Assembly: GCA_040437565.1 (NCBI GenBank)
Contig: JBDOQK010000003.1
Span: forward strand, 744,001-808,000
Direction: 5' to 3'
Source: Albugo candida
Taxonomy: Eukaryota
Length of the DNA: 64,000 bases
Shown here: one piece after another, positions 203 through 59,814 of the stretch
How positions within the stretch are numbered: position 1 is the first letter of the stretch
Layout of the letters: the number at the start of each line of letters is the position of its first letter
Program-made: the position numbers and the translations under genes
The notes under the pieces: generated by a model
What the model saw: the letters and a program-made list of their open reading frames with translations, nothing else
The model's database searches: none
What the model was told of the DNA's origin: nothing

Positions 203-1727
203 TTAAGTTAGCATTCCTTTCGTACTTGGGATTCCAGCGGTACCATCAAAGCTTACAGCGCTGCGTAGCGCGACAGCAAAAGCTTTGAAGGATGCCTCGG
301 CACGATGATGATCATTCCGACCACGTAGTACGTCCACATGTACGGTGATTCTAGCAGCAGACGAAAATGAGTGGAAGAAGTGAGGCAGCATCTCGCATGA
401 TAGCGCGCCAATATTTGGACGCGTGAGTGCCAAATTGATCTCGCTGTGTGGTCTACTGGAGATATCAACAACTGCCCGAGAAAGTGCTTCGTCTAAAGGA
501 ACGCACGCGGAGCCAAAGCGTGATATGCCGTGTCGATTTCCAAGGGCCTAACACATTGATTCATTGAGCACGTATATTTGTAACAAGGGGACGGGTAGAA
601 TTACTTTGTCAAATGCCTCTCCGAGTGCTAAGGCACAGTCTTCAGTTGTATGATGGTCATCAATGTGCGTGTCTCCTTCACACGACAGGCTTATATCAAA
701 TCGACTATGTTTGGACATTGCAGTGATCATGTGATCGAGGAATCCAATCCCAGTCTTAATCTGCGAATACATACACTAGTAAGGTGTGTGATCAAGATCG
801 ATTTGATACGTGATCTACCTCAGATTTCCCCGTTCCGTCGATGTAGACTTCAGCATCGATAGAAGTCTCTTTCGTTTTCCTTGACACAGTTGCCATTCGT
901 TTCAAGGAAGCGAACTTTGCATTTTTTGGTATGACATCCAGAAGCTCAGCAACACCCGGTTTTAGTATCCGTGTGGCACCGGCTGCCTTCAAGGACGATA
1001 TGTATCCAGTTTCAGCTTGAGCATCAATGAATTGTGCGTAAGCTTGTGGTGTCATGACGCCGCACGAAACCACTTTTGCTTTGCTTGCGGCGACAATATC
1101 ATCAACTGTGTCGCCTAGCATCAATGCTTCATGCGGATTTACACCTAGCTTTTCCAGTGCCAAGCGAATTGGTATTGGCGATGGTTTGAGATCACCGTCT
1201 TCCATGCAAACAAGCACTTTGAAAAATTGCTCCAGACTACGTCATAAAAAATGTTAGACATCGTGATGTACGACCTACATCGTTACAAGTACGTACTCGT
1301 GCGATCTGAGAAAAGTCATGCAGTCTTTTCGCGGTCGTCCAGTGACCACGGCCATACCCGAAGGTAGTCGATCACTGAGTTCCGCAAGTAATCCTTTGGC
1401 AACTAACAAGCTCTCCAAATTAAATAGACCAGATTTTTCGCTGGTACCCTGGTATAAATCTTCAAATTTCGAGGTGACCTCATCGAGAGAGGGCAAGCTG
1501 CAGGATTTTTCCTGAATGAGACTAGCGGCATTATGTATGAGGCGATAGGTAAGATGCCAGTCGTTATTGGCATCACCCAGCAATTTAAGCTTCTCGATCT
1601 CGTCATTCGACGTGAGAACTCCAAAGTGTTTCGCCGTTCCAATAATCGCTGCGCGATACGATTGTGATACATCGGCCAAGACGCCGTCCATATCCCATAA
1701 CAGAGCTTTGATTGTGCCGTCAGTCAT
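203..1727 (-). CDS. Bifunctional HAD-family phosphatase / imidazoleglycerol-phosphate dehydratase (histidine biosynthesis), 4 exons
   Basis: N-terminal HAD motifs DMDGV, VTGRP, KPSP and GDTVDD. C-terminal IGPD motifs [24 protein letters not shown] and [12 protein letters not shown] introns at 1296-1237, 818-761 and 604-548 join the exons in frame. Confidence 0.92.
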
Positions 1728-4046: not shown

Positions 4047-5104
4047 ATGTCCAGCACACGAACAATACACGCGCTCGCCGCATTTGAATCCAAAGGAGAA
4101 ATAAAACCCTGGTCCTATGAATCTAGACCACTCGGACCCGAAGACATTGAAATCGAAATTACTCATTGTGGAATTTGTGGCAGTGATATCCATACGATTG
4201 ACAGCGGATGGGGACCAACCACCTATCCCGTTGTTCCAGGACATGAAATTGTTGGGAAAGTAACCGAGGTCGGTCCCAGTGTGGACAAATTTAAGGTCGG
4301 AGATCGGGTCGGTGTGGGGGCACAGGTATGGGCGTGTCTGAATAAAGATGCATCGAAACCATGTCATGAATGTGAGGTGGGAATGGATGCACTCTGCAGT
4401 AGCATCGTCGCAACATACAACGGAAAATATCGTGATGGCAGTACCTCGTACGGTGGTTATGCAGACTTCATTCGTGTGATACAAGATTACGCTTTCACTA
4501 TTCCCAAAATATACCGTCTGATGCAGCTGCTCCATTATTGTGTGCCGGTGCCACTGTTTATACACCTTTGAAACACGAAGGTGTCAAAAGCGGCGATCGT
4601 GTTGGTGTCATCGGTATTGGTGGACTCGGGCATCTTGCTATACAATTCATTGCAGCCATTGGTGCAATTCCGGTTGCATTCTCTCGGTCTAATAGTAAGG
4701 AGAAAGAAGTGCGCGCTCTTGGGGCTCAGGATTTTATTGCAACCAACGATATGGAACAAGTCAAAAGTGCGTCACGATCGTTGGATTATCTTTTGATTAC
4801 AGCGGACGCAAACGGAATGCCATATGATCAGTATTTGGGTTTTCTTCGCCCTCGAGGTACTTGTATAATGCTCGGACTTCCCAACGATAACATAACATTC
4901 CGGGGACTATCTCTGGTCTTCCCGGCTGTAAGATTCGTCGGAAGCTTGATTGGCAGCATCCAAGATATAAAGGAAATGTTACAAATCGCTTCGAATAAAA
5001 ACGTTCGGCCGGTCATCCAGAAAATGCCAATGAAGCAAGTTAATGATGGTATTGAACTTGTTCGCAGCGGGAAAGTTCGTTATCGTGTAGTGTTGGAGAA
5101 CTAA
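4047..5104 (+). CDS. Zn-dependent NADP alcohol dehydrogenase (cinnamyl-alcohol/mannitol dehydrogenase family), with an apparent 1-nt frameshift near 4506-4509
   Basis: Motifs CGICGSD, VPGHEIVG, APLLCAG, GIGGLGH and the C-terminal VRYRVVL. The two ORFs join if one A is added to the A4 run. Confidence 0.9.
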
Positions 5105-6798: not shown

Positions 6799-8377
6799 TC
6801 ACGGAACAGGACCATTCGAATAACCCTGCCTTCTCAGCAAGTTGCTGACATCTTCACGTGAAGCAATCGCGTCTGGCATCGCAGAAGCGTCATCAATCTG
6901 TGATCGTATAAATTCGTGGAACTCTCTCCGAGACAGCACCGAACGGCAAGACGACGCTACTGAAGCATGACTTGTCGTCCGAAAAGATCGCAATGATGAC
7001 ATATCATCGTCAGCTCTATGGTGTTGCGCAACCTGCGAGCGATCTTGGCTTGCAGGTTCATTATCGTCCTCGTCGTCAGAAGCAATCACTATACCAGTAT
7101 GCTCCAAGTCCTTAAGTAGCTGAAGATCCTGATTAATTTGTTCCAGCCGCTGCTGAGTCAAACGTTCCTTCTTATTATTTTGAATGACGTTCTGTGTCAA
7201 ATGTGACAGAGACGCTTCTCTGTCATCGTCGTGAGATTCGTCGGGAATCGTAATAATTGAGTCCTCATCAAGCAAGATGGGCTGATAGATACCTGCTCTA
7301 TCATGTATCAGTTGCTCTATTGCATCCTTTTCCTCTCTACCAAGTGCAAAGGCATTAATGTCCATAGATGGAGGGCAATTCAATTTTTCCGCCACGGGAT
7401 CCTCACTCAATAAATGATCAAGTCGTTCTTCTTCATCACGAGTGAATTTGGTGCTACCATTTCGGATAAGATCGCGATTACGTTCAATATAGTTCACCTT
7501 TTTTGTTCCATCAAGAAGGAAAGTGACGCGGCGTTTGGACCTTCTTTGTTTTCCCCTCGGTTTATTGTCATGATTAGGAGTTGGATCGATTTCAGTGATT
7601 TTATCTTTCTTGTGTACATCGACAGTAGCTTTGTGCACTTCGTTGTACAAGTTTTTTCCCCATTTGACTTCCAGAATAGCGTCCAGTTGACGGATACGTG
7701 CCGTTTTCACAGCAATCTTGGTTTCTAAAGTCATTTCCCCACGATTATTTTCATCCTAATCACAAGAAACGCTTATAAAATATTTGAGAGTCTGTAAACG
7801 AGGTGAGACTCACAGTGGCATAGTGCTTGTTTAAAGCACGTTCAATCAGCAAGTGAGACCAAGATGCACCTTGGTTACTTTTACTCTGCGTATGAGTGTC
7901 CTTTCCGTCACTAATATCAGCTTCATTCATTAAAGATACTATCCGGTCGAAGTTACCAGGAAAATGGATCAGTGTTCCACCCAAATCATCCTTTTTTGTG
8001 GCCAAAGATGCAAGATATTCTTCAAGATCTTCACAGACCATCAATCGTCGTTGTTGATAGTAAGTCAGCATATTTTGTACTCGTTGCAAATGTTCTTCTG
8101 TCTGATTAGGTACATCTTGTTTATCGGTTCCTTCAATCTGCGGATTGAGAATCGCATCTTGATCCGCCAGACAATGACCCTCTTTCATCTCTATGTGGCA
8201 GGTATGCTGTAAAGCCGTTGCCTCGATATTTCTAATTTTCCGATTGTACAAAGCAACTTCGTTTTCACAATAAGATGCTTCTCGCTCAGAGGTACTTGTT
8301 ATGAAAATTGGCTTATCGTTCGGGCATTTCATTAGATTGACACTATTCTCCGCTTCGCAAATCATCCGTTTCGACAT
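6799..8377 (-). CDS. Coiled-coil protein, FSIP1 (fibrous sheath-interacting protein 1)-like, at least 2 exons
   Basis: Intron 7813-7756 joins the two ORFs in frame. NYIERNRDL...EEERLDHLL and QQRLEQINQDL resemble FSIP1 family blocks as I recall them. Confidence 0.55.
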
Positions 8378-8654
8378 AATATTACGCCAGAAACGTCGAC
8401 ACTCCACATCTAATCAAAAGACCGATAAATTAAAAACTTTTCATACTGAAACGTTGACAACCTTCTGCATTTAGAATTGATCTCTAATGCATCTAATAGA
8501 GCACCTTTGAGGCTTAAAATCAATGCAAGTTAGGGTTATTGTATGTACGGTGATAGTGTTTGACTTCTGATTGTATGCGGTTAGTGCTCTCTCCCGATAT
8601 TTTCGATTCTCACTACTTTTATTGGCGCTTGCATCATACTCCGCATTGAAAGCA

Positions 8655-9776
8655 ATGGCAACAGATGACGACAGCGTTCTCGATGTTAACTCTTTGATTG
8701 ATCGAGCCACTTTTGATGATAAAATAGGCTTGGAGGATTTTACTTTGATTCGAGTAATCGGAAAAGGTTCTTTTGGGAAAGTTACATTAGTTCGGAAAAA
8801 AACGAACAGTAAGATATTTGCAATGAAAATACTGTCGAAAACTCAATTAGTAAAACGTAAACAAGTAGAACATACTAAAACGGAAAGACGGGTTCTGAGT
8901 GTTGCGAGTCATCCTTTCATTGTAGGGCTACATTATGCATTCCAAACCTCCTCAAAGCTGTATTTTGTATTAGACTATTGTCCAGGTGGAGAATTATTTT
9001 TCCATCTGTCAAGAATGGGAAAGTTTGATGAAAACATGACTCGGTTTTATGCGGCGGAACTAGTAGTGGCTCTGGAACATTTACATTCTCTTGGAGTAGT
9101 GTATCGAGACCTAAAGCCGGAGAATATTTTACTAGATGAAATGGGGCACATAAAATTGGCAGATTTTGGACTAGCAAAAGACAAGGTCACCGAAGTGGAT
9201 AGTGGAGCTACTTCATTGTGCGGTACGCCAGAATATCTAGCACCGGAGATACTGACAAGAAAGGGGCATGGACGAGCTGTGGATTGGTGGGGATTAGGAA
9301 TGGTGATTTACGAAATGCTTACAGGATTGCCACCATGGTATGCTCGGAATAGAGAGGAACTTTTTGCCCGAATTCGTGACGCTCCCCTGGAGATTCCCAA
9401 CTATTTCAGTGCTGAAGCCGCTTCATTGACTTCATTACTATTACACCGTGAACCGAGTAAACGATTGGGAAGCAAAGGGGCAAGCGAGGTTAAAGCGCAT
9501 GCTTTTTTTCGTTCAGTTGATTGGGATAGTTTGCTTTGGGCTGAACCTCCATTCAAACCGTCAGATCCACAATCAAAAGAAGCTGGTGACACCTCTAATT
9601 TTGATCCGGAATTCACAGAGATGCCTGTTTCCGGCACACCACTCAGCAAGTCCAATACAGGATCTTCGTTCCCCAAGAGTATGTTCCGCGGTTTCACGTA
9701 TGAAGCTCCTGCCGTGTCGTTTGGATCGGACACATCACAATCCAAAGTTGAATTCGCTTCTACCCCGTACATTTAG
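8655..9776 (+). CDS. AGC-family Ser/Thr protein kinase (S6K/SGK/PKB-like), no PH domain
   Basis: Motifs GKGSFGKV, YRDLKPEN, DFG, CGTPEYLAPE, NFDPEFT and the hydrophobic motif FRGFTY. Confidence 0.93.
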   Translation: MATDDDSVLDVNSLIDRATFDDKIGLEDFTLIRVIGKGSFGKVTLVRKKTNSKIFAMKILSKTQLVKRKQVEHTKTERRVLSVASHPFIVGLHYAFQTSSKLYFVLDYCPGGELFFHLSRMGKFDENMTRFYAAELVVALEHLHSLGVVYRDLKPENILLDEMGHIKLADFGLAKDKVTEVDSGATSLCGTPEYLAPEILTRKGHGRAVDWWGLGMVIYEMLTGLPPWYARNREELFARIRDAPLEIPNYFSAEAASLTSLLLHREPSKRLGSKGASEVKAHAFFRSVDWDSLLWAEPPFKPSDPQSKEAGDTSNFDPEFTEMPVSGTPLSKSNTGSSFPKSMFRGFTYEAPAVSFGSDTSQSKVEFASTPYI

Positions 9777-9867
9777 TGCAATATTAAACCACATAGAATA
9801 TCAATTGTGAGAAAAAATAGAACTTTACTGACGTAACTTAGAAACCACCAGTCATTTCTTCCCAATT

Positions 9868-11414
9868 ATGGGCGGCGTAGATACAGGAAACGAGGAGCTA
9901 ATCTCAGCATCCCAAGTAGTTCCAGACACGAAGTATGACCTCACCAACACACTCGCACCCTCTATGGATTTGCATTTCATGTTCCCATTAATCGACTTTC
10001 TAATGAGTAATGATATGTACGAAGAATCAGAATTATTAATGGCAAAACTCTCGCTACTAAAACCTACCAATATGGCAGATTTCGCGTTAGAAGTGTATCA
10101 AAACCTATATCAGACCAAAGAGACTCCCGCGGAATTCGAAAATAGGCGCAGTGAGATTTTAGAGCGTCTGAGTGCAACTGAAAATGAATGCAAATTAATG
10201 CTGGACTTGATTCAGGATGAACAAAAAATCATCCAACTACAAAATGAAAATCTGTTAAACGCATCCTATCTGGAGAAGCACGAGAAGATATCTACTTCAG
10301 TCTTAGATGGATTGTACAAGTACGCTAAAGTGCAGTATGAGTGCGGGAATTATCAAGATTGTCTGACGTATCTAACATATTATGGAGTTCTTATACCCAA
10401 TTCCTCACCTCGATATATAAATGCTCTCTGGGGGAAATTGGCTGCTGAAATTCTCATATTTCGCTGGGAAGAAGCTCTAGCCGATATAGAACGAATCAGT
10501 GATGTCATCGAAAATAGTGTACGTAAAGTATAGTAGCCGAGGGATTTTTCGTGAGATGAAAAAGCGCACAGGCAGTCGGTAGAGTCAACCTGTATGGAAA
10601 ACATATATCGAAGATCAACTGCGTTGTGCGCTTTGGTTTACTCACTAAAATCACTTCGGACTCTTGTATTTGGATTTGGAGCTCACCGTGATTTATATCT
10701 TAGGCTTCCATGACACCCCAAGAACAACTTCAACAACGCACATGGTTGTTGCATTGGTCTCTCTTCGTTTTTGCCTGGTGCGAAGATGGACGCGATGCGA
10801 TTGTCGAGTTCATGCTTCAGCCACGATACGCAGAAGCAATTCAATGTAATGCACCATGGCTGTTACGATATCTTTCAGCAGGTGTTATATTCCACAAACG
10901 TCGAAAAAGTCTTATTCCGGATTTACTTCGCATTTTACAACTGGCGGATACAACCTACGTCGATCCAATTCTCGAATTTGTGGACTACTTGTTTGTCCGC
11001 CTTGATTTTGAATCCGCTCAAGCTAGTTTACGTGAATGCGAGGCCGTGTTGGCAAGCGACTTTTTTCTCTATGAGAAAAATTTAACTGACTTCATGGAGT
11101 CTGCTAAATTAGCGATTTTTGAACTGTACTGTCGTGTGCATCGCACGATAGATATCAAAGTATTGGCAAGGCAACTTGAGATGGAAGACGACGAGGAAGC
11201 CGAACAATGGATTGTCAACTTGATTCGCAATGCTCGTTTGGAAGCAAAGATCGACTCACAGTCTGGGCAGATTATCATGGGCTCCCATAATAGCTCTCGG
11301 AACAACGTGTATCGCCAGATAATTGAACGCACTAGAGACCTTGTGGTCCGGACAACAAGCATGGCAGCTCAAACGGAAAGGGTCAGACAACGTAAATCTG
11401 ATGTTCGAGCCTAG
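9868..11414 (+). CDS. EIF3E: Eukaryotic translation initiation factor 3 subunit E, 2 exons (intron 10519-10703)
   Basis: Motifs YDLT..LAPSMDLH..FPLIDF, ALWGKLAAEIL, LQQRTWLLHWSLF and AEQWIVNLIRNARLEAKIDS (PCI domain). Confidence 0.95.
10537..10659 (+). other. Long imperfect hairpin inside the eIF3E intron (candidate structured RNA)
   Basis: Nested helices CCGAGG/CTTCGG, GATTTT/AAAATC, GTGAG/CTCAC, AAAGCGCACA/TGTGCGCTTT and GCAGT/ACTGC, plus an inner hairpin TGTATG-GAAAA-CATATA. Confidence 0.75.
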
Positions 11415-12710
11415 GGTACATGCTCCTATGCATATGTATCTGATATCAACGCTTGCGGAGATGATGGATAAAAAATGATCACGATCATTCTTGCTTGAAT
11501 AGTGAAATTTCTTCATAGCGTAACACTTCAGGAGCGAGTTGTTGCGACCACGCATCAAATGTCATGATAAGTGAGATTAATCACAGTGCTACAGCTCTAG
11601 AACAAGTATATTGCATTTTTCCTTCCGATTCAATAGAGCAAGCCGTAGTCGCCGTGCATCGCAAAAATCGTAGTTCACGACTCGTTATTTGTTCATCATT
11701 GTCGAACACGATTACGTCAATTATCAGAGCAAGCACCGCTTTGAATCGTTGCTGATATTACTCATGCACAAAAGCTCTCGTCGTCAGCTCTTCGAAATTG
11801 CTCACATGGTAAATTAGATGCACCGCTCTTAGCGACATGTGATGAGGACATATCCTAGGCTAACAAGCATGTTGGTGCTTGTCCATTCGGATAATGTTGC
11901 GATGTGAAGCGATCCTCATCTGTAGAATATAATCATAGAACGTTTAATACTGAGCGTGTTTTGGTAAAGTAGAAAAAGCAAGTTACGATAATTGAAATCA
12001 CGAGTGAGTAGATCATCCGCGCGTGCCATATCGAGCCGTGCGCTGAAAATTTGCATGGAAAGGCAAACTGAGAGTCACTGGAGTGATTTTCACAATAAAT
12101 TGAATAAATACAACGTTATAGAAGTGAGTTGATGGAGATATATTGAGCTATCATCGATTCTGTTGCTTGTGCTTGAGTTTGTTCTGCTCAGCACTTGGAT
12201 CAGGACAAAGAAGCGAAGTTTGATAATGGTTTAAGAAGCAAATTCGTCATTCGTGCGTCGTTATCTTGCGGAAAGAATTGTGCATATAGAGCGCGCCTTC
12301 ATTTAGGCCATGTATTTTGATTCATGCGATATTAACATAACTACCGCTTGTATTTTGCCAAATACGAACGAGCACTTGTATACATTGTACATCAATGCTT
12401 GCAGTTGGGACAAACGGCTCCCACGAGCTGGAAGTTGACACATGAACAAGCCAAGTGAGCACGCGGTTTCACGCAGGTCACATATGGTTGCTGTGTAGTA
12501 CAGTGGACCGGGAGAATCCACTTTGTTCTAGGCCAAGGCACGCTGAATGAAAAGGTAAAGTTCGTGCTGATCTTCGTCTTGGCACGCAGATTATTTTCCG
12601 AAATAAAAATCAACAGAAAAGATGCGGAATTAGACAGGTAAGACGAAATCATTTGATTTGCTTAAATGCATGTTCTAATGCCAATGCAAAATGGAGTAGT
12701 ATTGTGAAGC

Positions 12711-15577: not shown

Positions 15578-17905
15578 TTATTTCATATCATTTTTTGGAG
15601 CATTCCAGGCTGCGAAACGGCTTTTTTGATTCATCATTGATTTTGCCTTTTTTGTAAACATCGTGTTGTTCCAGCTGTAATTCTGCATGATTGCTTTTGC
15701 TTGTACTACTCGACTTTTCATGTCATTGTGCGCTTCTTCCTGTGGATTCGAACCCTCCTGATCGTCACTATCTTCGCTATCATCACTTTCATACGTACGC
15801 CGGGATTCTCGATTAAATTCGGCTTTTCCCTCAACTTTTCCTGCTTTCTTGACATCTTTGCTACGGAGCGTGCCGGTCCGAATAAGTGAAGACTGATCAA
15901 GATTGACAATTGATTTGTAATGACGCTCGCGTTTATAATTTGTTGCTGATGGATTTGTTGACATACGCGTTAGTTTTTCCTGAATACGCTGGGACACACC
16001 TGCTGCCGGTTTTTCTTCTCTGATCCTGCGGACAGAAGCTTTTGTTTTGGACGGAGCCAATGGAAAATCCCACGAGTTTTCCCCGCTTTGGGCATTATAG
16101 TAATAGAAATCGCCTGGATAATGACGACTCTCCACACGTGTCCAACCTTCTGGTAGTTCTTCATTGCTCTCGGTTGTAGAGTCCGAAGAAGTCTCTGCAA
16201 AGTCTACTTGTTGCTCCATGGGTTCTTCCTCTATATGAGACTTAAAAAATCTCATTTTACGCTTGCTTTGATCAGTATTACCTTCTTTTCTACCAGCTAT
16301 AGATCGATTTTTTATATCAGATGAATGCGGAACAAGATCAACTCGTTTCGAATTTTGCTTTGTAATTTGTTTGAACTTGCCCATGCGTTGATAGATCTGG
16401 TTTTGTAGACGACTCAGCACTTCGTCACTTTCACTGTCGGCACCATCGCGACCGAGAAGCCGCACCTCTCCCTTCGAAGGTGATAAGCTGATAGTGTCAA
16501 TTTTTTTCCTCCACGCAAGTGCTTCTTCAGCTCGTTGCTCCGCCGAGTCGCGCATTCTACGCTGATACTGAGCATCTTTTTCCAACTCGTCCAATAGATA
16601 TTCTTGTTCTTTCAGTTTCTGTAGGTAACTTGACACTTCCTGCTCCAACTGTTTACTTTTCCCAACGAAATCCCTAGACTGTTCTAATTCATTAGTCAAA
16701 CTGGCGATGTGCGCATCCTTTTCTTCTAACTCTTTGATCGCTTGCTTATGCTCTTCTAAGCGCCGCTGTAAATCGCTCATTTTAGCCTCACTTCGCTTCA
16801 ATGATCGTATCACCTGATCTTTCTCCGCTAATGTTGCTTGATATTCGCTTCCACTTTCTTTCATTTCTGCCAGTTTTGCTTCTTGATTTTGATATATACT
16901 TGCTATATCTTCAAACAATGCCATCAACTGCTCGAGGTTTTGTAGTGGATTTCTTTTGTCGGTTTGAGAGGCCCTTCTGGATGTACCCGAGCCTCGAGAA
17001 GAACTACGTGCCTTTGGAGTTTTACCTTCTTCCAACCCTGTGGTCATCAGGGAATTTCTTATCGTGCGGCATTGCTTCAAGGTTATCTCAGTCTGCTGTG
17101 AAAAGTCATCCAGCATTTGACGGAAATAATCGGCCTCTTCTTGTGCACGTTCCTCTTCTTTTTCGTCCACAATTTGTTTACTTTGTGCCACTTGATCTCG
17201 CAAGTCAGCGATCATTTCGTTTGCTTTTTCTAGTTCCCCTTCTAGCACTTGTATAGATTGATCATCAACCTCACCACGCAGACGTCCTGCCACTTGCAAG
17301 GCTTCAATCCATTCACTACCCTCTTTAGGCAACGTCGGATCCAAATAAAGCTCAAAGGGCTCCACTGGTACCTCATTATCTTCTATACCATTTTTCTTTT
17401 CGGAAGATGAACAGAGCCGAAAACTATACTTACTACTCCCTTGGAATTGCTTTTTCCCAAACGTGTCCCCGACCTGTGATTTGTAATCAACTTGATCCAG
17501 ATATTCTAAATCAATGACACCACTCGGAACATCATCATCTGCTGTCTGGTAGTAATATAGATAGGTAGCCGGTCGAATGACAAAGTAATACCAGTTCCAG
17601 GTCTTTGTCCCCGGGACTTGCTGTTTCAAATATCCGGACTTGACACCTAAATTGGATAAAGTTTTGGCGTCCTGCTGAGGTGAGAACTGGATGCGTGATC
17701 GCTTACAGCCAGCACTCTTGTGATTTCGGACCGAATCGTTAATCAGAGTTCGATTACGCGTACCTTGACGTTCAGAGTCATCACGTGTCGAAGAGTGAGA
17801 GACTGATAATGATTGGCTTTGGCTGCTAGATCTGCTCGCTTGAGATCTGCGTTGGGTGGGGCGTTCTCGAATAGGACGCTTGTTTGGCGCATGCGCATTG
17901 TTCAT
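15578..17905 (-). CDS. PH domain / coiled-coil / WW domain protein (775 aa)
   Basis: PH domain: KSGYLKQQ...TWNWYYFVI...LYYY...PSGVIDL...EWIEAL. A long heptad region follows, then a WW domain: LPEGWTRVES...FYYYNAQSGENSWDFP. Confidence 0.85.
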   Translation of the reverse strand: MNNAHAPNKRPIRERPTQRRSQASRSSSQSQSLSVSHSSTRDDSERQGTRNRTLINDSVRNHKSAGCKRSRIQFSPQQDAKTLSNLGVKSGYLKQQVPGTKTWNWYYFVIRPATYLYYYQTADDDVPSGVIDLEYLDQVDYKSQVGDTFGKKQFQGSSKYSFRLCSSSEKKNGIEDNEVPVEPFELYLDPTLPKEGSEWIEALQVAGRLRGEVDDQSIQVLEGELEKANEMIADLRDQVAQSKQIVDEKEEERAQEEADYFRQMLDDFSQQTEITLKQCRTIRNSLMTTGLEEGKTPKARSSSRGSGTSRRASQTDKRNPLQNLEQLMALFEDIASIYQNQEAKLAEMKESGSEYQATLAEKDQVIRSLKRSEAKMSDLQRRLEEHKQAIKELEEKDAHIASLTNELEQSRDFVGKSKQLEQEVSSYLQKLKEQEYLLDELEKDAQYQRRMRDSAEQRAEEALAWRKKIDTISLSPSKGEVRLLGRDGADSESDEVLSRLQNQIYQRMGKFKQITKQNSKRVDLVPHSSDIKNRSIAGRKEGNTDQSKRKMRFFKSHIEEEPMEQQVDFAETSSDSTTESNEELPEGWTRVESRHYPGDFYYYNAQSGENSWDFPLAPSKTKASVRRIREEKPAAGVSQRIQEKLTRMSTNPSATNYKRERHYKSIVNLDQSSLIRTGTLRSKDVKKAGKVEGKAEFNRESRRTYESDDSEDSDDQEGSNPQEEAHNDMKSRVVQAKAIMQNYSWNNTMFTKKAKSMMNQKSRFAAWNAPKNDMK

Positions 17906-33993: not shown

Positions 33994-35132
33994 ATGCTGA
34001 CACACTGCAGCCGGTCTTGTAGACTAAAAGCATCTACCAACCGCATCTGTTTTCATTCGCGAGTTGTTTCGAGTGTGTTGAGTGATTCAAAGCTGATTTT
34101 ACAAAAAGAAGGAAGAAATACAAATGACGCGAAAATTCTGCTGGCTAGTGCTCTACGTCCAGCTGTAACACCCAGCAACAGTCTGTTTCTTCAATTGGAC
34201 CGCGAGGTAGTTGAGAGCACATTTCTGACGTAGAATATTATTGACATGCTGATATGAGCAAAATGTTGAAAAGGTGACCGATGATGAGTATACGACATTC
34301 AGATCAAGTATCCGACGCCGCTGCAAAGGCGAACCGATCGCTTATATAACCGGGACAAAAGAATTTTGGTCGATGGAATTCCGAGTTAATTCTAATACTC
34401 TCATCCCTCGTGCAGACAGCGAAGTATTGGTCGAAGCAATTGCGGTACGAGGATGTTCATCGCTGACAGCGCCTTGCGCACACTGATCTTACGCGACCAT
34501 GTTTTCGACAGGAAGAATACCCGAAAGACGCGAAACTCCGGTTTTTAGATATTGGAACAGGCTCTGCTTGCTTACTGTTGTCCGCTCTGTCCGAATATCC
34601 CCGTGCAAGTGGCCTAGGAATTGACATTTGCAGCAAGGCAATTGACATCGCACGTGAGAATGCCAAACATCATTCTCTTACGAACCGTTGTGATTTCGTA
34701 AAGTTTGATTTACGAGGTATCCAAGCATTGACTCCAGTGGGATTCCATGAGTTTTTTCCGCTGGCTCCGTTCGATGTTATTCTGTTCAATCCTCCGTACA
34801 TCCCGCAATCTGAACGTTGCATGGTCGATGAAGAGGTTTTGATGCACGAGCCTCATTTGGCGCTATTTCCATCCTCGGATGACGTTCATCATGATCTTGG
34901 TTTGAAACTATATGAAAGCCTTCAGTGTGTTGCATTACGCTTGCTTGGCATATCACATAATTCAAAGGAAACCACAACTTCGTATAAGCGAACACTTTGC
35001 ATGGAAATTGGCTCTCGAAAACAGGCGGAAGCTGTCAGAGCGCTTTTTGCGCATTTGGAACCCAAATTACAATTCAAGAAAACCCTTTTTGATATAGAAA
35101 ACCGCCATCGAGGTATTTTATTCACTACTTAG
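33994..35132 (+). CDS. Release-factor glutamine methyltransferase HemK/PrmC, probably mitochondrial, 3 exons
   Basis: Motifs RRCKGEPIAYITGTKEFW, TLIPRADSE, LDIGTGSAC, NPPY and EPHLAL, with a basic N-terminal extension. Confidence 0.88.
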
Positions 35133-37792: not shown

Positions 37793-38429
37793 TCAAGACT
37801 GAGGACCGTAGATGGAAGGACGAGGTGGAAGCAAATTTCGTGGAGGTAGTCCTCGTGGATAACCTAGAAAAGCTAATGTGAGAAAATATACAACGAATGA
37901 AGAAATAGTGATAACAAACTTTGCATTGGTGGTGGTGGACGCATCAAACTGGGTGGACCACCGGGTGGTGGCATCATCCCTCGCGGTGGCGGTCCGCGTC
38001 CTGGAATCATTCCAGGACGGAGCGGAGTTGGTATTCCAAGTGAAGGACCACGTAACCAAGCGCCAGCTATTGACATCACACTATTAAACGATGTAACATG
38101 CTATCTTTCTCGCCAGAGTGTCAACTTACGTGCCATGAGCATTGCCACACTGCCACCAGTATTCAGTATTGTTTGATTCGCTAACAACTAGTATTTGTAT
38201 AAAGACATGAGAACAATTTTGAATCAAGCACACAAAAGCACCTGTTCGTAATACAATTTGACATTCTCACGATGTTTCCATCCCCGATTGTGTTGCTTCC
38301 TACCAGCTTGCTACATATGACATCCAACATACATTATGTATCTACGACATGTTCATAAATCCTGAAAAATGACTGCACCGAATCATGCGTCAGATACGTA
38401 TCACAATAATCGCAATAATATCGCGGCAT
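37793..38429 (-). CDS. SNRPC: U1 snRNP protein C, multi-exon
   Basis: Spliced [34 protein letters not shown] (matrin-type Zn finger) followed by a P/G/M/R-rich tail. Confidence 0.93.
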
Positions 38430-54076: not shown

Positions 54077-56691
54077 TTATGCCGAACATGCATACATCCC
54101 TTGCGCTTCGCGTTCCTCATCCTCACTATCATTTGTAGCCGCATCGATGGACCGGTATTTTCCATCATCACGCTGACCGGAATGACCAAAACAATTCGTC
54201 ACTGGCTGTAACCAGTGCTTCCAGTTGATGATGTAATTTTGCAATGAGGCACAAATGCTTTGGGTACTTTCCATTCGTATCATTTTATGCCCTTCGGAAC
54301 TTGTTCCGGAATTGTTGAAGGAAGCTCCATCCGTCGATGAAAGTGAAGTGCCATCACTTTCTTTGTTTGCAGTTGGGAGAGAAGCAGGATGTAGCCCAAA
54401 CAGTTTTGACGCTCGTGCAGAGAAAACGATGCGAGCTCTAGATGCGGACTCTTTCCACTTTGACCCGGTCATGTACGACAGTTCCATATTCTGATCAACC
54501 TGTTCGATCTGTATCGAGGGGCCCAGGAGATAGACATCTGTACGCCACGGTGTTTGATACTCCAATTCACAGGCCGGTAGGTAGACGACAAGCTGATCAA
54601 GTTGTTTAAGCTGTCGCGCGAGTTCTGAGGTCGACCCTCCTCCAACTCCGTCAATCGAAATAGTCTCTTTGATGATATCTTCGACAAGAACTTGATACCA
54701 AATCGATCGACTTTTTTGATTATAAATCGAGCCGATGGCCGGAAAAATAGCTCCATTTTTGACTTTGCACAGTTCCTTAGAAGCTGTAGAAGCCTCGCTA
54801 TATACCGTCACTCCTAGTGATTTTTCATCTGATATGAGCTTTTTTGCGTCTGCACTGGTTTCTGGCTTGCAACAAATCTGAAGAGATTCTTTGGGCTCTA
54901 TCTTTCCAGGACGTCGAATCTCTTGCAAGAGACAATTATTGTCTGTCGGATCTGATTGAATGACGAATCCGTACTCTTCATTTTGTGTATCACCAGTGAT
55001 AGTCATAGCGAGTCGAATCCAAATTTGACCATCTCGATTAAGAACGCGATAATTTGAAGCAAAGACAGTCCCAGGTTCCAGCTGCCCGATAACTTCGCCA
55101 TCTATTCGCGCTTCTGAATTTATAGACAGACTTTTCTCCGCGTATACATTCCGATAGTAACGTTCAATAGCATCTAGATCTCGACTAGTGTCTTGTGATA
55201 AAAGCTCTGTGAACCCACCGCCAACACCCCAAGGAATTACTACTTGCTCCCCGGTGTTGACGTTTCTTTCCACGATCCAAACTGCTTTCGTGCTCCCGGA
55301 ATTTTCATTTTGATCCTCTAGGGGGATTATGCTCAAATTCTCCTGTTTGACTGGTTCATCGCTTGTGTTTTGANNNNNNNNNNNNNNNNNNNNNNNNNNN
55401 NNNNNNNNNNNNNNNNNNNNNNNNNNNNNNNNNNNNNNNNNNNNNNNNNNNNNNNNNNNNNNNNNNNNNNNNNTGTCGGATCTGATTGAATGACGAATCC
55501 GTACTCTTCATTTTGTGTATCACCAGTGATAGTCATAGCGAGTCGAATCCAAATTTGACCATCTCGATTAAGAACGCGATAATTTGAAGCAAAGACAGTC
55601 CCAGGTTCCAGCTGCCCGATAACTTCGCCATCTATTCGCGCTTCTGAATTTATAGACAGACTTTTCTCCGCGTATACATTCCGATAGTAACGTTCAATAG
55701 CATCTAGATCTCGACTAGTGTCTTGTGATAAAAGCTCTGTGAACCCACCGCCAACACCCCAAGGAATTACTACTTGCTCCCCGGTGTTGACGTTTCTTTC
55801 CACGATCCAAACTGCTTTCGTGCTCCCGGAATTTTCATTTTGATCCTCTAGGGGGATTATGCTCAAATTCTCCTGTTTGACTGGTTCATCGCTTGTGTTT
55901 TGAATTTGGTCTGCTTCACACTGTATCTCTACTTCTAGCCACACTTGATCCTTAACAATCTTCCTCTCTAACAGCTTGACAACTTGAAACGGGCCCAACA
56001 CACCTACACGTGGTGCTTGTAACATTGGAACGGCTCGATACGGTAAGCCTCCCTTCCAGTTTCTTCCAGATCGTGACGCTATATTCTGCACATATCGAGA
56101 TCCAACCACGTTCGTACGACAGGAGTAATGAACTGGTGAGCCAATGATCGCAAAGGCCTCTTCAAACAAAGTTCCAAAGGGAATGACTGTCCATCCTGTT
56201 GTGCCATGAAAACTTTTAATTTGTAGCGCTATTTGTGTGTGATTATCGTTCCATTGACATTGTGTGGCTTCTATAACAGTATGCGGCTGTAATACTCGAT
56301 GTGGTACTCTTGTATGAGGTTCCGGACTTTGACCAGTAACAAACATCGGGATGCGAGAGATACGTAGAGGCTGCAAAGTATGCAAAAACACTGGAAAACT
56401 TGGCATTTTGAGTAAATTTCGGAAACAAATGATTGGAGGAGTTGTATTAGAAGGGTCGAAATCATGCGCGAGTGAAACTGGTATATAGCCATTCTTTTTA
56501 TGATTGGAAAACGTGCCTTGTCGAATCTGAAGCCATATTTGAGAAGATAAATACAGAGTTTTCGAAGACGCAAAGTAAGCTCCACGTCGAAGCTCACCAC
56601 ATTTCTCAAACTTGTTTTCAGACGGGCTCGCATACACGCAAAGCGGGGCAGAATGCTTACCGCTACCGACGTACTGATACATGAACTCCAT
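54077..56691 (-). CDS. Uncharacterised protein (~694 aa after collapsing the gap duplication) with tandem SH3b-like repeats
   Basis: Removing the 530-nt gap plus duplicate leaves one 2085-nt in-frame ORF with recurring L-x-V...G-x-L-x-x-G...W-L/Y-x-V/I units. Confidence 0.7.
54944..55903. repeat. Gap-flanking duplication 54944-55373 = 55474-55903 (assembly overlap)
   Basis: The same 430 bp lies on both sides of a 100-N gap. Confidence 0.9.
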
Positions 56692-57283
56692 CTGATAATA
56701 TTGCGATTGATTGAGGAATACGTGTACACTGCCAAAGAATTACGAACTGTATCAGGTACACCACACTATTCTACAGTGTTCTTGGTAGAAGTAATGGAAC
56801 TATGTCGTGCTTGTAATGGTAACAGTAAAAATATGCGTTTCTGAGTAGACTTATCGTCCAGCATACCAAGCATGCTTATCCATTGAATGTGCATTTTACT
56901 ATGTGATCCTTCCTATTGAGTTGCTCATTTCGCCTGTCAATAGTCGCATTCAAAGTTTATAACGGTAAATTAAGCCAACTTTCTCGGATGAAGAAACTCA
57001 TCGTTCACTGTTGAGTCCTGCCGGCCTTAGATAGGAGGATGTACTGCATAGAGCGGCTATACCATCTCACAATCTCGTAGCATTGCTGCTACCGCTCTGG
57101 AGATAGTACAAGGACCCTACAGGATGAGTCGAGAAGCAGTAGGTAATTTACCCTCCATCTGAGTCAACGCAATGACACACACTATCACTCTATCGATTCC
57201 TACGACTACATTATACGCGTTATAAACGGAGACATTATCATTTTAGTACGGCGATATACACTATTCTATCAGCAAAAGGCATA

Positions 57284-59814
57284 ATGGTTACATCCGAATC
57301 TCTGTCGGATCTAGCACTGGTGCTTCTCATCATATTTCTACTATCGATTTCGGTCGCTCTCTTATCACTGTTGCGATCACGTGCACATCAGCAAACCTCT
57401 GAGCGAGATTCTCAGTTCATGCGCATTTTCATCAATAGAATATTTCAGACTGAAGCTGCGGAAAACACAACTCGATTAGATCTTGAGAGAAAGTAGGTGT
57501 CTTTAGACCATGTTGTACATTGACGTGTAGGGACTGACGTTTTGTCGTAGCGAGAAAAGCGAAATTCGGTGGAAATGTCAGATTTGCGAGTTTTCCAATA
57601 ACAAAGAAACAGACTATTGTCTCCTTTGTGCTACGAAACGTGGTCAAGGAGCCGAATATAGTATTCTTATGCCCAGTTGTAAAGCTGGTACAAGCACCGA
57701 ATTNNNNNNNNNNNNNNNNNNNNNNNNNNNNNNNNNNNNNNNNNNNNNNNNNNNNNNNNNNNNNNNNNNNNNNNNNNNNNNNNNNNNNNNNNNNNNNNNN
57801 NNNCTCAGTTCATGCGCATTTTCATCAATAGAATATTTCAGACTGAAGCTGCGGAAAACACAACTCGATTAGATCTTGAGAGAAAGTAGGTGTCTTTAGA
57901 CCATGTTGTACATTGACGTGTAGGGACTGACGTTTTGTCGTAGCGAGAAAAGCGAAATTCGGTGGAAATGTCAGATTTGCGAGTTTTCCAATAACAAAGA
58001 AACAGACTATTGTCTCCTTTGTGCTACGAAACGTGGTCAAGGAGCCGAATATAGTATTCTTATGCCCAGTTGTAAAGCTGGTACAAGCACCGAATTCTCG
58101 ACAATGAAAAACACCGCCAAAGCATCAGTGATATTTTCTAGCTCGGATCGGATATCGCTGGAGCAAAAAGCAGAGAAGCTCCTTCCACTGAATAGCCGAC
58201 AAGAATACGCACGGTACATAAGGAATACTTGATCACTCGTGACCTCTCTCATTTTCGTTTTGAAGGAAAAGAAATGAATGGGTTCGACAGATTAGTAATG
58301 ATGGGACGGCAGCTTGGAAACGGCGAGATTTCTTACCCGTAAAAAAAGAAGAGAGTAGAACCTCAAAAACAAGAACAGGTTCAGATGAAACACAACCTAG
58401 CCGAGCTACTTTACTTCCATCGCTTACATCTGTCCCAGTGGGACCTTCGAGTGCGCTCACATCTTCTTTTGCTCTTTCAACAATATCGATGGAACGTGGC
58501 TCGCACGGATATATCACTCGACTTGTACGATCATCCTCGAGTGGTGCGGCACGTCTGACATTTCAAAACGCTAAAGATGTAGATGCATCGACCACCACGC
58601 TAGGAAGATATAAGCTACAGGAAGCGGAACTTGTGAATCTTGAGCAGGGTCCATACGTGCCTTTTGGCAAAAAGCTCGAATGGTTCTTGGAGCAAATGCA
58701 GAGTCTCATCAAAAGCTGGGAACAAGGCCGGCTCAAAATGCGACTCCATCGAGAGAATATTCTAGTTGAATCAATGGAACAACTACTTTCCATTCTGCCA
58801 ACTGATTTGCACTTCCCATTACGGATCGAGTTTATCGATGAGGTGGGTATTGACGCGGGCGGTCTTCAGCGGGAATGGTACGCTTTGCTGTTTTCGAAGA
58901 TTTTGGACGAACAAGTTGGGCTATTTATTGTCTGTCATCGAGAAAATCAATCGCTCTGTTTAAATCCGAATTCGGAGGAGCATTCACCCGACCATTTATT
59001 ATACTTTCGAGGCGTTGGTCGCTTAATTGGACGATCTCTGCTTGATGGTTACACGATGCCTGCCAAGTTTGCTCTACCAATTCTCAAACATCTTCTCGGC
59101 GTTCCCATCACATTCTCCGACCTGCAGTATGTGGATCCAGAAGTGTACTCCAGCATGAAATGGATCCGTGACAACAATGGGATTGAGAGCTTAGAATTGA
59201 CTTTCTCGGTCACTGAAATCCGATATGGTTCGCCAGTGGTGATTGATCTCAAGCCTCGGGGACGCGATATTGCAGTCACAGATGCAAATAAGATGGAATA
59301 CCTGCATTGCCGACTCCGATACTTGACCCTAGATCGGTATGCAAGCCAACTACAAGCGTTCTCTGAAGGGTTTCTCGAAGTAATTCCTCAAGAGAAACTT
59401 ATGATTTTCGATTACCAAGAACTAGAGCTTGTAATGTGTGGATTACCACAGATACATGTCGATGACTGGAAGACCCACTCAGTAATTCATCCTCCCAACT
59501 TTGCCAATTCTGACGTCGTGCGGTGGTTTTGGGAAGTCTTACATGATCTAAATCAGGAAGAGCGTGCACGATTTCTACAGTTTTCTACCGGATCCTCCCG
59601 CGTTCCTGTACAAGGCTTTCGAGCATTGACCAGCTTTGATGGCAGGCTGTGTCCGTTTAATATTCGTCCAATAGCGGATCAATCTCGTGGTTTCCCCAAA
59701 GTGCATACCTGCTTCAATCGAATTGACCTTCCAGTGTACCAGTCCAAAGCAGAGCTGAAAAGCGCCATTGCAATGTTACTGCAGCTGCAATGGACAGAAT
59801 TTAATATCGAGTAG
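57284..59814 (+). CDS. HECT E3 ubiquitin ligase with N-terminal TM helix and RanBP2/NZF zinc finger, 3 exons; spans a gap
   Basis: TM segment LALVLLIIFLLSISVALLSLL; spliced WKCQICEFSNNKETDYCLLC; HECT motifs EVGIDAGGLQREWY, LQFSTGSSRVPVQGF and the catalytic HTCFNRIDLP. Confidence 0.9.
57411..58096. repeat. Gap-flanking duplication 57411-57703 = 57804-58096 (assembly overlap)
   Basis: The same 293 bp lies on both sides of a 100-N gap. Confidence 0.9.

Follow-up and report, generated by a model that had tools for sequence, protein, structure and literature searches.

The sole intron of the eIF3e gene in a 64,000-nucleotide (nt) stretch of the genome of the white-rust parasite Albugo candida (contig JBDOQK010000003.1, positions 744,001 to 808,000 of the forward strand; hereafter the window, numbered from its first letter) contains an exceptionally stable hairpin of 123 nt. 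The intron is removed precisely, the hairpin appears to be single copy, and the intron left when the hairpin is subtracted resembles other introns of the same window. The hairpin is most likely a tolerated passenger rather than a selected RNA gene, and the reading we favour, to which we give an even chance, is that of a tolerated palindromic insertion which is looped out of the intron. The locus may serve as a natural example of a short-intron genome that carries a threefold-oversized intron, the excess of which is self-complementary and leaves a standard distance from the 5' splice site to the putative branch site.

The eIF3e intron and its hairpin

The gene is identified as eIF3 subunit e by the Pfam matches of its two exons: exon 1 matches eIF3_N (E 1.8e-35), and exon 2 matches PCI (E 2e-12). 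The sequence of exon 1 is that of the public A. candida model of 453 amino acids (aa) and of 221-aa Logan open reading frames (ORFs), which extend four codons into the intron, and the exon 2 product is 100% identical to an NCBI 'unnamed protein product [Albugo candida]'. The A. candida model CCI40489.1 has 453 aa, which equals the length given by the exon model (217 + 236 codons). Its A. laibachii orthologue, CCA26196.1, belongs to the same protein cluster and likewise has 453 aa. The junction is read as ...DVIENS followed by A(S/T)MTPQEQ in three A. candida models (453, 416, and 408 aa) and in the A. laibachii model. The public annotation gives these three A. candida models as isoforms, which differ by their start Met alone (MGGVD..., MFPLID..., and MSNDMY...; window 9868-10000) and may be true alternative starts or variants of annotation.

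A contig of the public run X15 joins position 10518 directly to position 10704 ('skips 185, GT..AG'). X15 and X17 are taken as RNA runs by guess and not by record, whereas X1 and X13 are DNA runs, the contigs of which are continuous through the intron. The X17 contigs cover 13 of 30 bins, with the junction not among them. The precise GT..AG skip in X15, as a spliced transcript would give, confirms the intron borders, and the 185-nt intron claimed in the initial annotation agrees with both this contig and the public protein models. In addition, eIF3e is well represented in the RNA-like X15 run, with a contig depth of 178.4.

All stems listed in the initial annotation are found in the minimum free energy (MFE) structure of the intron, and the single long stem, which had been put at roughly 40 bp, comprises 48 core pairs. 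The hairpin is far more stable than shuffled controls. The whole intron folds at -59.4 kcal/mol, compared with -42.0 ± 4.3 kcal/mol for its shuffles (z -4.07; 0 of 200 as stable), whereas the mean of 1000 dinucleotide shuffles of the core is -26.5 ± 3.3 kcal/mol (z -7.16; 0 of 1000 as stable; best shuffle -39.2 kcal/mol). The MFE index of the hairpin is 0.91. In a pre-mRNA context of 385 nt, which adds 100 nt of flanking exon at either end of the intron, the six core pairs sampled have probabilities of 0.95-1.0, and the basal extension (10526-36/10661-71) pairs with a probability of 0.17. Among 4930 windows of 150 nt, taken over the 64 kb on both strands, the hairpin window ranks second for stability, its -57.2 kcal/mol being 4.1 standard deviations below the mean (-30.6 ± 6.4). 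The sole window more stable than the hairpin is a putative coding stretch of 59% G+C at 37926-38075.

The intron does not belong to a known RNA family as far as searched: Rfam gives no match in 10519-10703 at E <= 10, no family reaches its gathering score over the whole window, and the snoRNA boxes CTGA and TGATGA are both missing from the intron. The initial annotation had recognised no C/D, H/ACA, or riboswitch signature, which is borne out by these results; a snoRNA host intron is rejected for want of boxes, and a riboswitch for want of an Rfam match. The stop-to-stop frames of 52-85 aa within the intron find no support as coding sequence. No tRNA or tmRNA gene is found in the window, and no tandem repeat in or near the intron.

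Table 1 Features of the eIF3e gene, its intronic hairpin, and the introns used for comparison.
Feature	Position	Strand	Details
eIF3e exon 1	9868..10518	+	217 codons, ATG at 9868; ORF
eIF3e intron	10519..10703	+	185 nt, GT..AG, phase 0; sole intron of the gene
5' splice site GTACGT	10519..10524	+	hexamer identical to that of the 60-nt HAD-gene intron 1237-1296(-)
Weak A-U/G-U stem extension, 5' side	10526..10536	+	pairs with 10661-10671; MFE structure
Core hairpin	10537..10659	+	123 nt, 48 bp, -50.0 kcal/mol
Stem CCGAGG/CTTCGG	10537-42/10654-59	+	MFE structure
Sole intron variant seen	10542	+	G>A in X13; disrupts the 10542-10654 G-C pair, no compensating change
Stem GATTTT/AAAATC	10543-48/10647-52	+	MFE structure
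Stem GTGAG/CTCAC	10551-55/10641-45	+	MFE structure
Donor-like GTGAGA in 5' arm	10551..10556	+	regular-expression scan; paired in MFE structure
Perfect 10-bp helix AAAGCGCACA/TGTGCGCTTT	10561-70/10625-34	+	100% complementary; MFE structure
Stem GCAGT/ACTGC	10572-76/10618-22	+	MFE structure
Inner hairpin TGTATG-GAAAA-CATATA	10591-10607	+	MFE structure
Apical loop GAAAA	10597..10601	+	MFE structure
Weak stem extension, 3' side	10661..10671	+	MFE structure
Putative branch site CTCAC	10682..10686	+	A at 10685; yTnAy scan, motif-inferred
3' splice site AG	10702..10703	+	cttAG followed by G; sequence and X15 contig junction
eIF3e exon 2	10704..11414	+	236 codons plus stop
HAD hydrolase intron	1237-1296	-	60 nt; flanked by Pfam HAD hydrolase
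ADH intron	4474-4526	+	53 nt; ADH_N, then ADH_zinc_N
PrmC intron	34445-34511	+	67 nt; PrmC_N, then methyltransferase

Proposed origin and accommodation of the hairpin

Subtraction of the core hairpin from the intron (185-123) leaves 62 nt. The initial annotation had called this a standard intron length, which holds against the three local introns available for comparison (53, 60, and 67 nt). These were kept, by continuity of the flanking Pfam domains and with no use of annotation, from 55 mostly spurious candidates of a heuristic finder; the candidates at 7756-7813 (Pfam match on neither side) and at 15946-15999 (no Pfam match on the downstream side) were not counted. The putative branch A (10685) is intron position 167, at a distance of 18 nt from the intron's 3' end, and this becomes position 44 once the core is removed. 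The corresponding branch-like A is at position 43 in the HAD intron, which also has a GTACGT donor, and at position 42 or 47 in the PrmC intron; in both introns, yTnAy-type motifs are located 17-25 nt from the 3' end. Without the hairpin, the eIF3e intron therefore matches the three local introns in length and spacing, and it is this match that speaks most strongly for the hairpin as something added to a standard intron.

We propose that a putative lineage-specific palindrome of about 123 nt came to lie inside a formerly ordinary 62-nt Albugo intron, by a foldback-type insertion or foldback transposon, by an inverted duplication of local sequence, or by template switching. In the pre-mRNA, the two arms would pair into the 48-bp hairpin and the extra length would be extruded as a side arm, so that the spliceosome would meet about the same spacing from the 5' splice site to the branch site as in introns of 53-67 nt and could remove the intron precisely. 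Folding would thereby make the long intron spliceable. The core hairpin starts 18 nt past the 5' splice site, with a further 25 nt between its end and the putative branch A, giving linkers of 43 nt in total. For the intronic zipper stems of yeast, a linker window of 42-85 nt, with respective minima of 10 and 20 nt for the two linkers, has been modelled on the yeast spliceosome (PMC12350175). The proposal requires the weak basal extension to remain unpaired, as the linkers would be 7 + 13 nt if it forms. The exact splicing at the predicted sites in the RNA-like X15 run speaks for this proposal.

The two strands of the intron behave alike. For the reverse strand, the folding energy is -47.3 kcal/mol and the z-score -4.04, compared with -4.07 for the sense strand. 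A strand-neutral alignment, in which the 3' arm is reverse-complemented and set against the 5' arm, has 51 matches with 14 mismatches and 11 gap columns, which corresponds to an arm likeness of about 78% (51/65 aligned columns). The 14 mismatches comprise 5 sense G-U wobbles, 2 antisense G-U wobbles, and 7 transversions, and the sense excess (5/7) is not significant (binomial P = 0.23). The initial annotation had taken the G-U pairs as a sign of selection at the RNA level, an argument that is removed by the wobble counts and by the equal z-scores of the two strands. Since these z-scores are equal and the arms differ by 5 versus 2 wobbles, 7 transversions, and 11 gap columns, the arm pattern would suit a decaying DNA palindrome better than a strand-specific RNA under selection. 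An arm likeness of about 78% would mean either that the event is old or that the palindrome was never perfect.

The only intron variant seen, G10542A, occurs on an X13 contig that has 4 differences in 1189 exon bases. The strand and variant data neither support nor exclude a function. Over 9700-11600, the isolates differ from the window at 4 (X1), 6 (X13), and 6 (X15) positions, which include 10059, 9948, and 10542, a divergence of about 0.3%.

The position of the intron appears to be older than the hairpin. Three ORFs of 60-70% identity (P0002, P0007, and P0010) read through the eIF3e junction, and seven ORF clusters of 56-71% identity (P0003-6, P0008, P0009, and P0011) start at a conserved Met two residues past it, which is what a prokaryote-style gene caller yields where an intron is present. 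The exon 2 ORF of the window likewise starts at that Met, as does P0250, an A. laibachii sequence on a 1002-nt Logan contig. The A. laibachii eIF3e protein is 94% identical (428/453), with the same junction. From this distribution, the intron position is probably shared among oomycetes, A. laibachii included, and the intron would hence predate the hairpin. At a greater distance, the junction was compared in 80 metagenome loci, all of at most 54% protein identity, in 77 of which both exons were located. Of these 77, 68 code straight across the junction with at most 15 nt of excess, contigs of 10-66 kb among them, and 9 have larger gaps there, mostly with an exon 1 match that ends earlier. As many short metagenome loci may be transcripts, these counts point only roughly to an intron position that is not ancient.

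Several points weigh against a looped-out insertion. The branch point is a motif-based guess, the steric limits of yeast may not hold for the spliceosome of an oomycete, and a total of 43 nt only just lies within those limits. Should the weak extension form, the resulting linkers of 7 + 13 nt would fall short of the yeast rule. In six other oomycetes, introns average 75-150 nt in length according to the accessible part of PMC3681718, which suggests that long ones are no rarity in this group, and, with just three other introns of this genome compared, unstructured introns of about 185 nt may be common in Albugo. The main-text parts of PMC3206522 and PMC13585763 give no intron-length figures for A. 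candida, which their supplements might hold. Moreover, even with about 22% divergence between its arms, the stem is surpassed in stability by no other AT-rich structure of the 64 kb, and its pairing could thus have been maintained. Finally, the A. laibachii intron might carry the same hairpin.

Alternative roles and origins

The alternative that survives best, which we nevertheless regard as unlikely, is that the hairpin is a selected splicing or regulatory structure, needed for efficient splicing or setting the ratio of spliced to intron-retaining transcripts. The geometry described above would serve such a structure equally well, and the stem is very stable despite the many differences between its arms. 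Retention of the intron leads to an in-frame TAG after four codons (GTA CGT AAA GTA TAG), so the retaining transcript would be untranslatable or prone to nonsense-mediated decay (NMD), which would provide feedback on a translation-factor gene. In addition, the stem buries the donor-like GTGAGA at 10551 and, within its 3' arm, the branch-like CTCAC and CTAAA motifs at 10641-10649. A precedent is found in yeast, where ribosomal-protein genes are autoregulated through intron structures including the RPL7B zipper stem, according to the accessible part of PMC12311795. However, the G10542A change in X13 breaks a G-C pair and is uncompensated, the wobbles and z-scores have no strand bias, and the hairpin is not known to hold a protein-binding motif. 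No retained-intron eIF3e contig was seen in X15, which is weak evidence against regulation, contigs being unable to prove absence.

An intron-hosted small-RNA precursor, in which Dicer-like cutting of the 48-bp stem would yield duplexes of 21-25 nt, is rather improbable. The long, mostly continuous stem with its small bulges and an MFE index of 0.91 would be a suitable substrate, its host gene reaches a contig depth of 178 in the RNA-like run, and homologues of DCL and RDR are present in Albugo, as reported in the accessible part of PMC4791657. On the other side, no Rfam family matches, miRNA families included, and no strand asymmetry is seen. The ends of a mirtron hairpin are set by the splice sites, whereas the eIF3e hairpin starts 18 nt past the 5' splice site and ends 44 nt before the 3' splice site, and is thus not a mirtron. 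The available text of PMC7297541 describes an Arabidopsis ago1 mutant that left A. laibachii infection unchanged, which does not speak for cross-kingdom RNA interference in Albugo, and no paper on small RNAs from Albugo hairpins was found, to judge from listings and abstracts. A functional RNA of either kind in this obligate plant parasite, as a Dicer-processed source of small RNAs released whenever the abundant eIF3e pre-mRNA undergoes splicing or as a switch of eIF3e dosage via splicing and NMD, and conserved across Albugo with compensatory changes, is also unlikely in our estimate; if it were true, no structured RNA element in an intron would have been described in an oomycete before it.

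It is doubtful that the hairpin belongs to a dispersed mobile family, whether as a miniature inverted-repeat transposable element (MITE) that landed in the intron or as an introner-like element that created the whole intron. Its palindromic character, its size of about 120-150 nt, its AT-richness, and its intronic location would suit such an element. Tc1/Pogo and MULE DNA transposons are present in A. candida (PMC13585763), symmetrical introns (PMC8469720) and introners with terminal inverted repeats (TIRs; PMC9860276) are known elsewhere, as far as the accessible parts of these three papers go, and most of the distant eIF3e genes have no intron at this position. However, a second copy is found neither in the window, where blastn of the intron (word size 7, E <= 10) returns the intron itself and seven chance matches of 11-18 nt, nor, at a likeness of at least 80%, among contigs from four public runs, where 10 of 10 matching contigs are collinear with the locus and none lies only partly on the hairpin. 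One of these four runs is a 76.6-Mb contig set that bears the organism code of several runs of 33-36 Mb; in the comparison with the runs, a filter drops some records. As to close copies, of at least 80% likeness, single-copy status of the hairpin is thus well supported by these searches.

The whole candidate element is an inverted repeat, the flanks of which hold TA or GTA matches at chance level only; TA dinucleotides at its possible ends are to be expected by chance in AT-rich sequence, and no convincing target-site duplication is visible around it. No direct repeat of 4 nt or more is found at the intron borders, and the hairpin is internal to the intron, not terminal. The many dispersed copies that mark a MITE are not seen in the window or, at the likeness searched, in the four runs. 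Nor is the eIF3e intron found to belong to a family of near-identical introns at unrelated gene positions, as an introner would; the other three local introns have no match to it (blastn within the window), and the ORF starts in the seven clusters of relatives suggest that the intron position predates the hairpin. The initial annotation had offered a tolerated MITE-like insertion among its readings. Tolerated insertion is the part that is best supported, by the hairpin-less length and the spacing from the 5' splice site to the putative branch site, whereas the MITE part is not supported, as no further copy is found in the window or, at the likeness searched, in the four runs, and no convincing target-site duplication is visible.

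A chance inverted repeat with neither history nor meaning might be expected in AT-rich, freely drifting introns, but none of the 1000 shuffles comes within 10 kcal/mol of the core and the hairpin holds rank 2 of 4930 windows, so that a chance origin is effectively refuted and excluded for practical purposes.

Surrounding features and comparison with known systems

The window has a G+C content of 42.6% and contains 900 N. A protein-kinase ORF with VYRDLKPENILL...DFG motifs (8571-9776, + strand) stops about 90 nt upstream of the eIF3e ATG at 9868; the two genes are on separate X15 contigs, with depths of 23.8 and 178.4, respectively. The A. candida protein KAL0592079.1 (829 aa) belongs to a 90% cluster that contains both eIF3e and an A. 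laibachii 'protein kinase', and is therefore probably a wrongly fused model of kinase and eIF3e. The stretch at 37926-38075 (-59.5 kcal/mol) has repeats of GGTGG/GGACC type, looks like Gly/Pro-rich coding sequence, and has no Rfam match. Several strong local hairpins are located at 56550-57200 on the - strand. A 14-nt word occurs twice, at 57420-57433 and 57813-57826, 393 nt apart; Tandem Repeats Finder reports no tandem array there, and this part of the window may be a dispersed or duplicated segment. A search of viral contigs with eIF3e gave no match. The sole match in the genome-contig search is an eIF3e-like gene of 45% identity on CALOFE010000039.1 (L081), an 82.5-kb contig labelled as a Planctomycetaceae metagenome-assembled genome (MAG); since a translation factor of eukaryotes would be out of place in a 'bacterial' MAG, the contig may be a eukaryotic one that was misbinned.

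Whichever reading of the hairpin holds, the public eIF3e gene model is unaffected. If the hairpin is a passenger palindrome only, it is a minor curiosity. If it proves conserved or needed, it would extend the zipper-stem principle to stramenopiles and would provide a simple model intron for the length limits of intron definition. Knowledge of structure-assisted splicing comes almost entirely from yeast. To judge from listings and abstracts, the literature describes neither structure-assisted splicing in oomycetes nor this hairpin, and the closest matches are of known kinds, namely zipper stems, foldback insertions, and symmetrical introns.

Intronic zipper stems are known in yeast from RPS17B, RPL7A/B, and other genes (PMC12350175, PMC2536676, and PMC12311795). 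On the favoured reading of a looped-out insertion, the eIF3e hairpin would behave like such a stem. Its core is in the same position, with the putative, motif-inferred branch A at 10685 downstream, and the 18 + 25 = 43 nt of its linkers would fall inside the 42-85-nt window at the lower edge if the weak extension stays open, given a branch point inferred from a motif and limits modelled on yeast. The burial of GTGAGA (10551) and of the CTCAC/CTAAA motifs in the 3' arm would fit the structure found around cryptic sites in yeast. In contrast to the yeast stems, which are found in introns of 400-500 nt, the eIF3e structure is one continuous 48-bp hairpin that makes up two thirds of its intron, in a genome where the normal introns compared have about 53-67 nt.

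With mirtrons and intronic pre-miRNAs, the element shares a hairpin in a spliced intron of a well-expressed gene, whereas its ends are set off from the splice sites and no Rfam miRNA family matches it. Like MITEs and foldback elements, it is a short, AT-rich, near-palindromic non-coding stretch in an intron that folds on either strand; unlike them, it is single copy as far as tested and has no recognisable target-site duplication or family-type terminal motif. The symmetrical (stw)introns of Hypoxylaceae (PMC8469720) and the TIR-bearing introners (PMC9860276), as described in the accessible parts of these papers, are likewise internally symmetrical and potentially form double-stranded RNA. Those introns occur as multi-copy families of similar members with terminal repeats that reach the intron ends, whereas the eIF3e hairpin is solitary and its repeat is internal to the intron.

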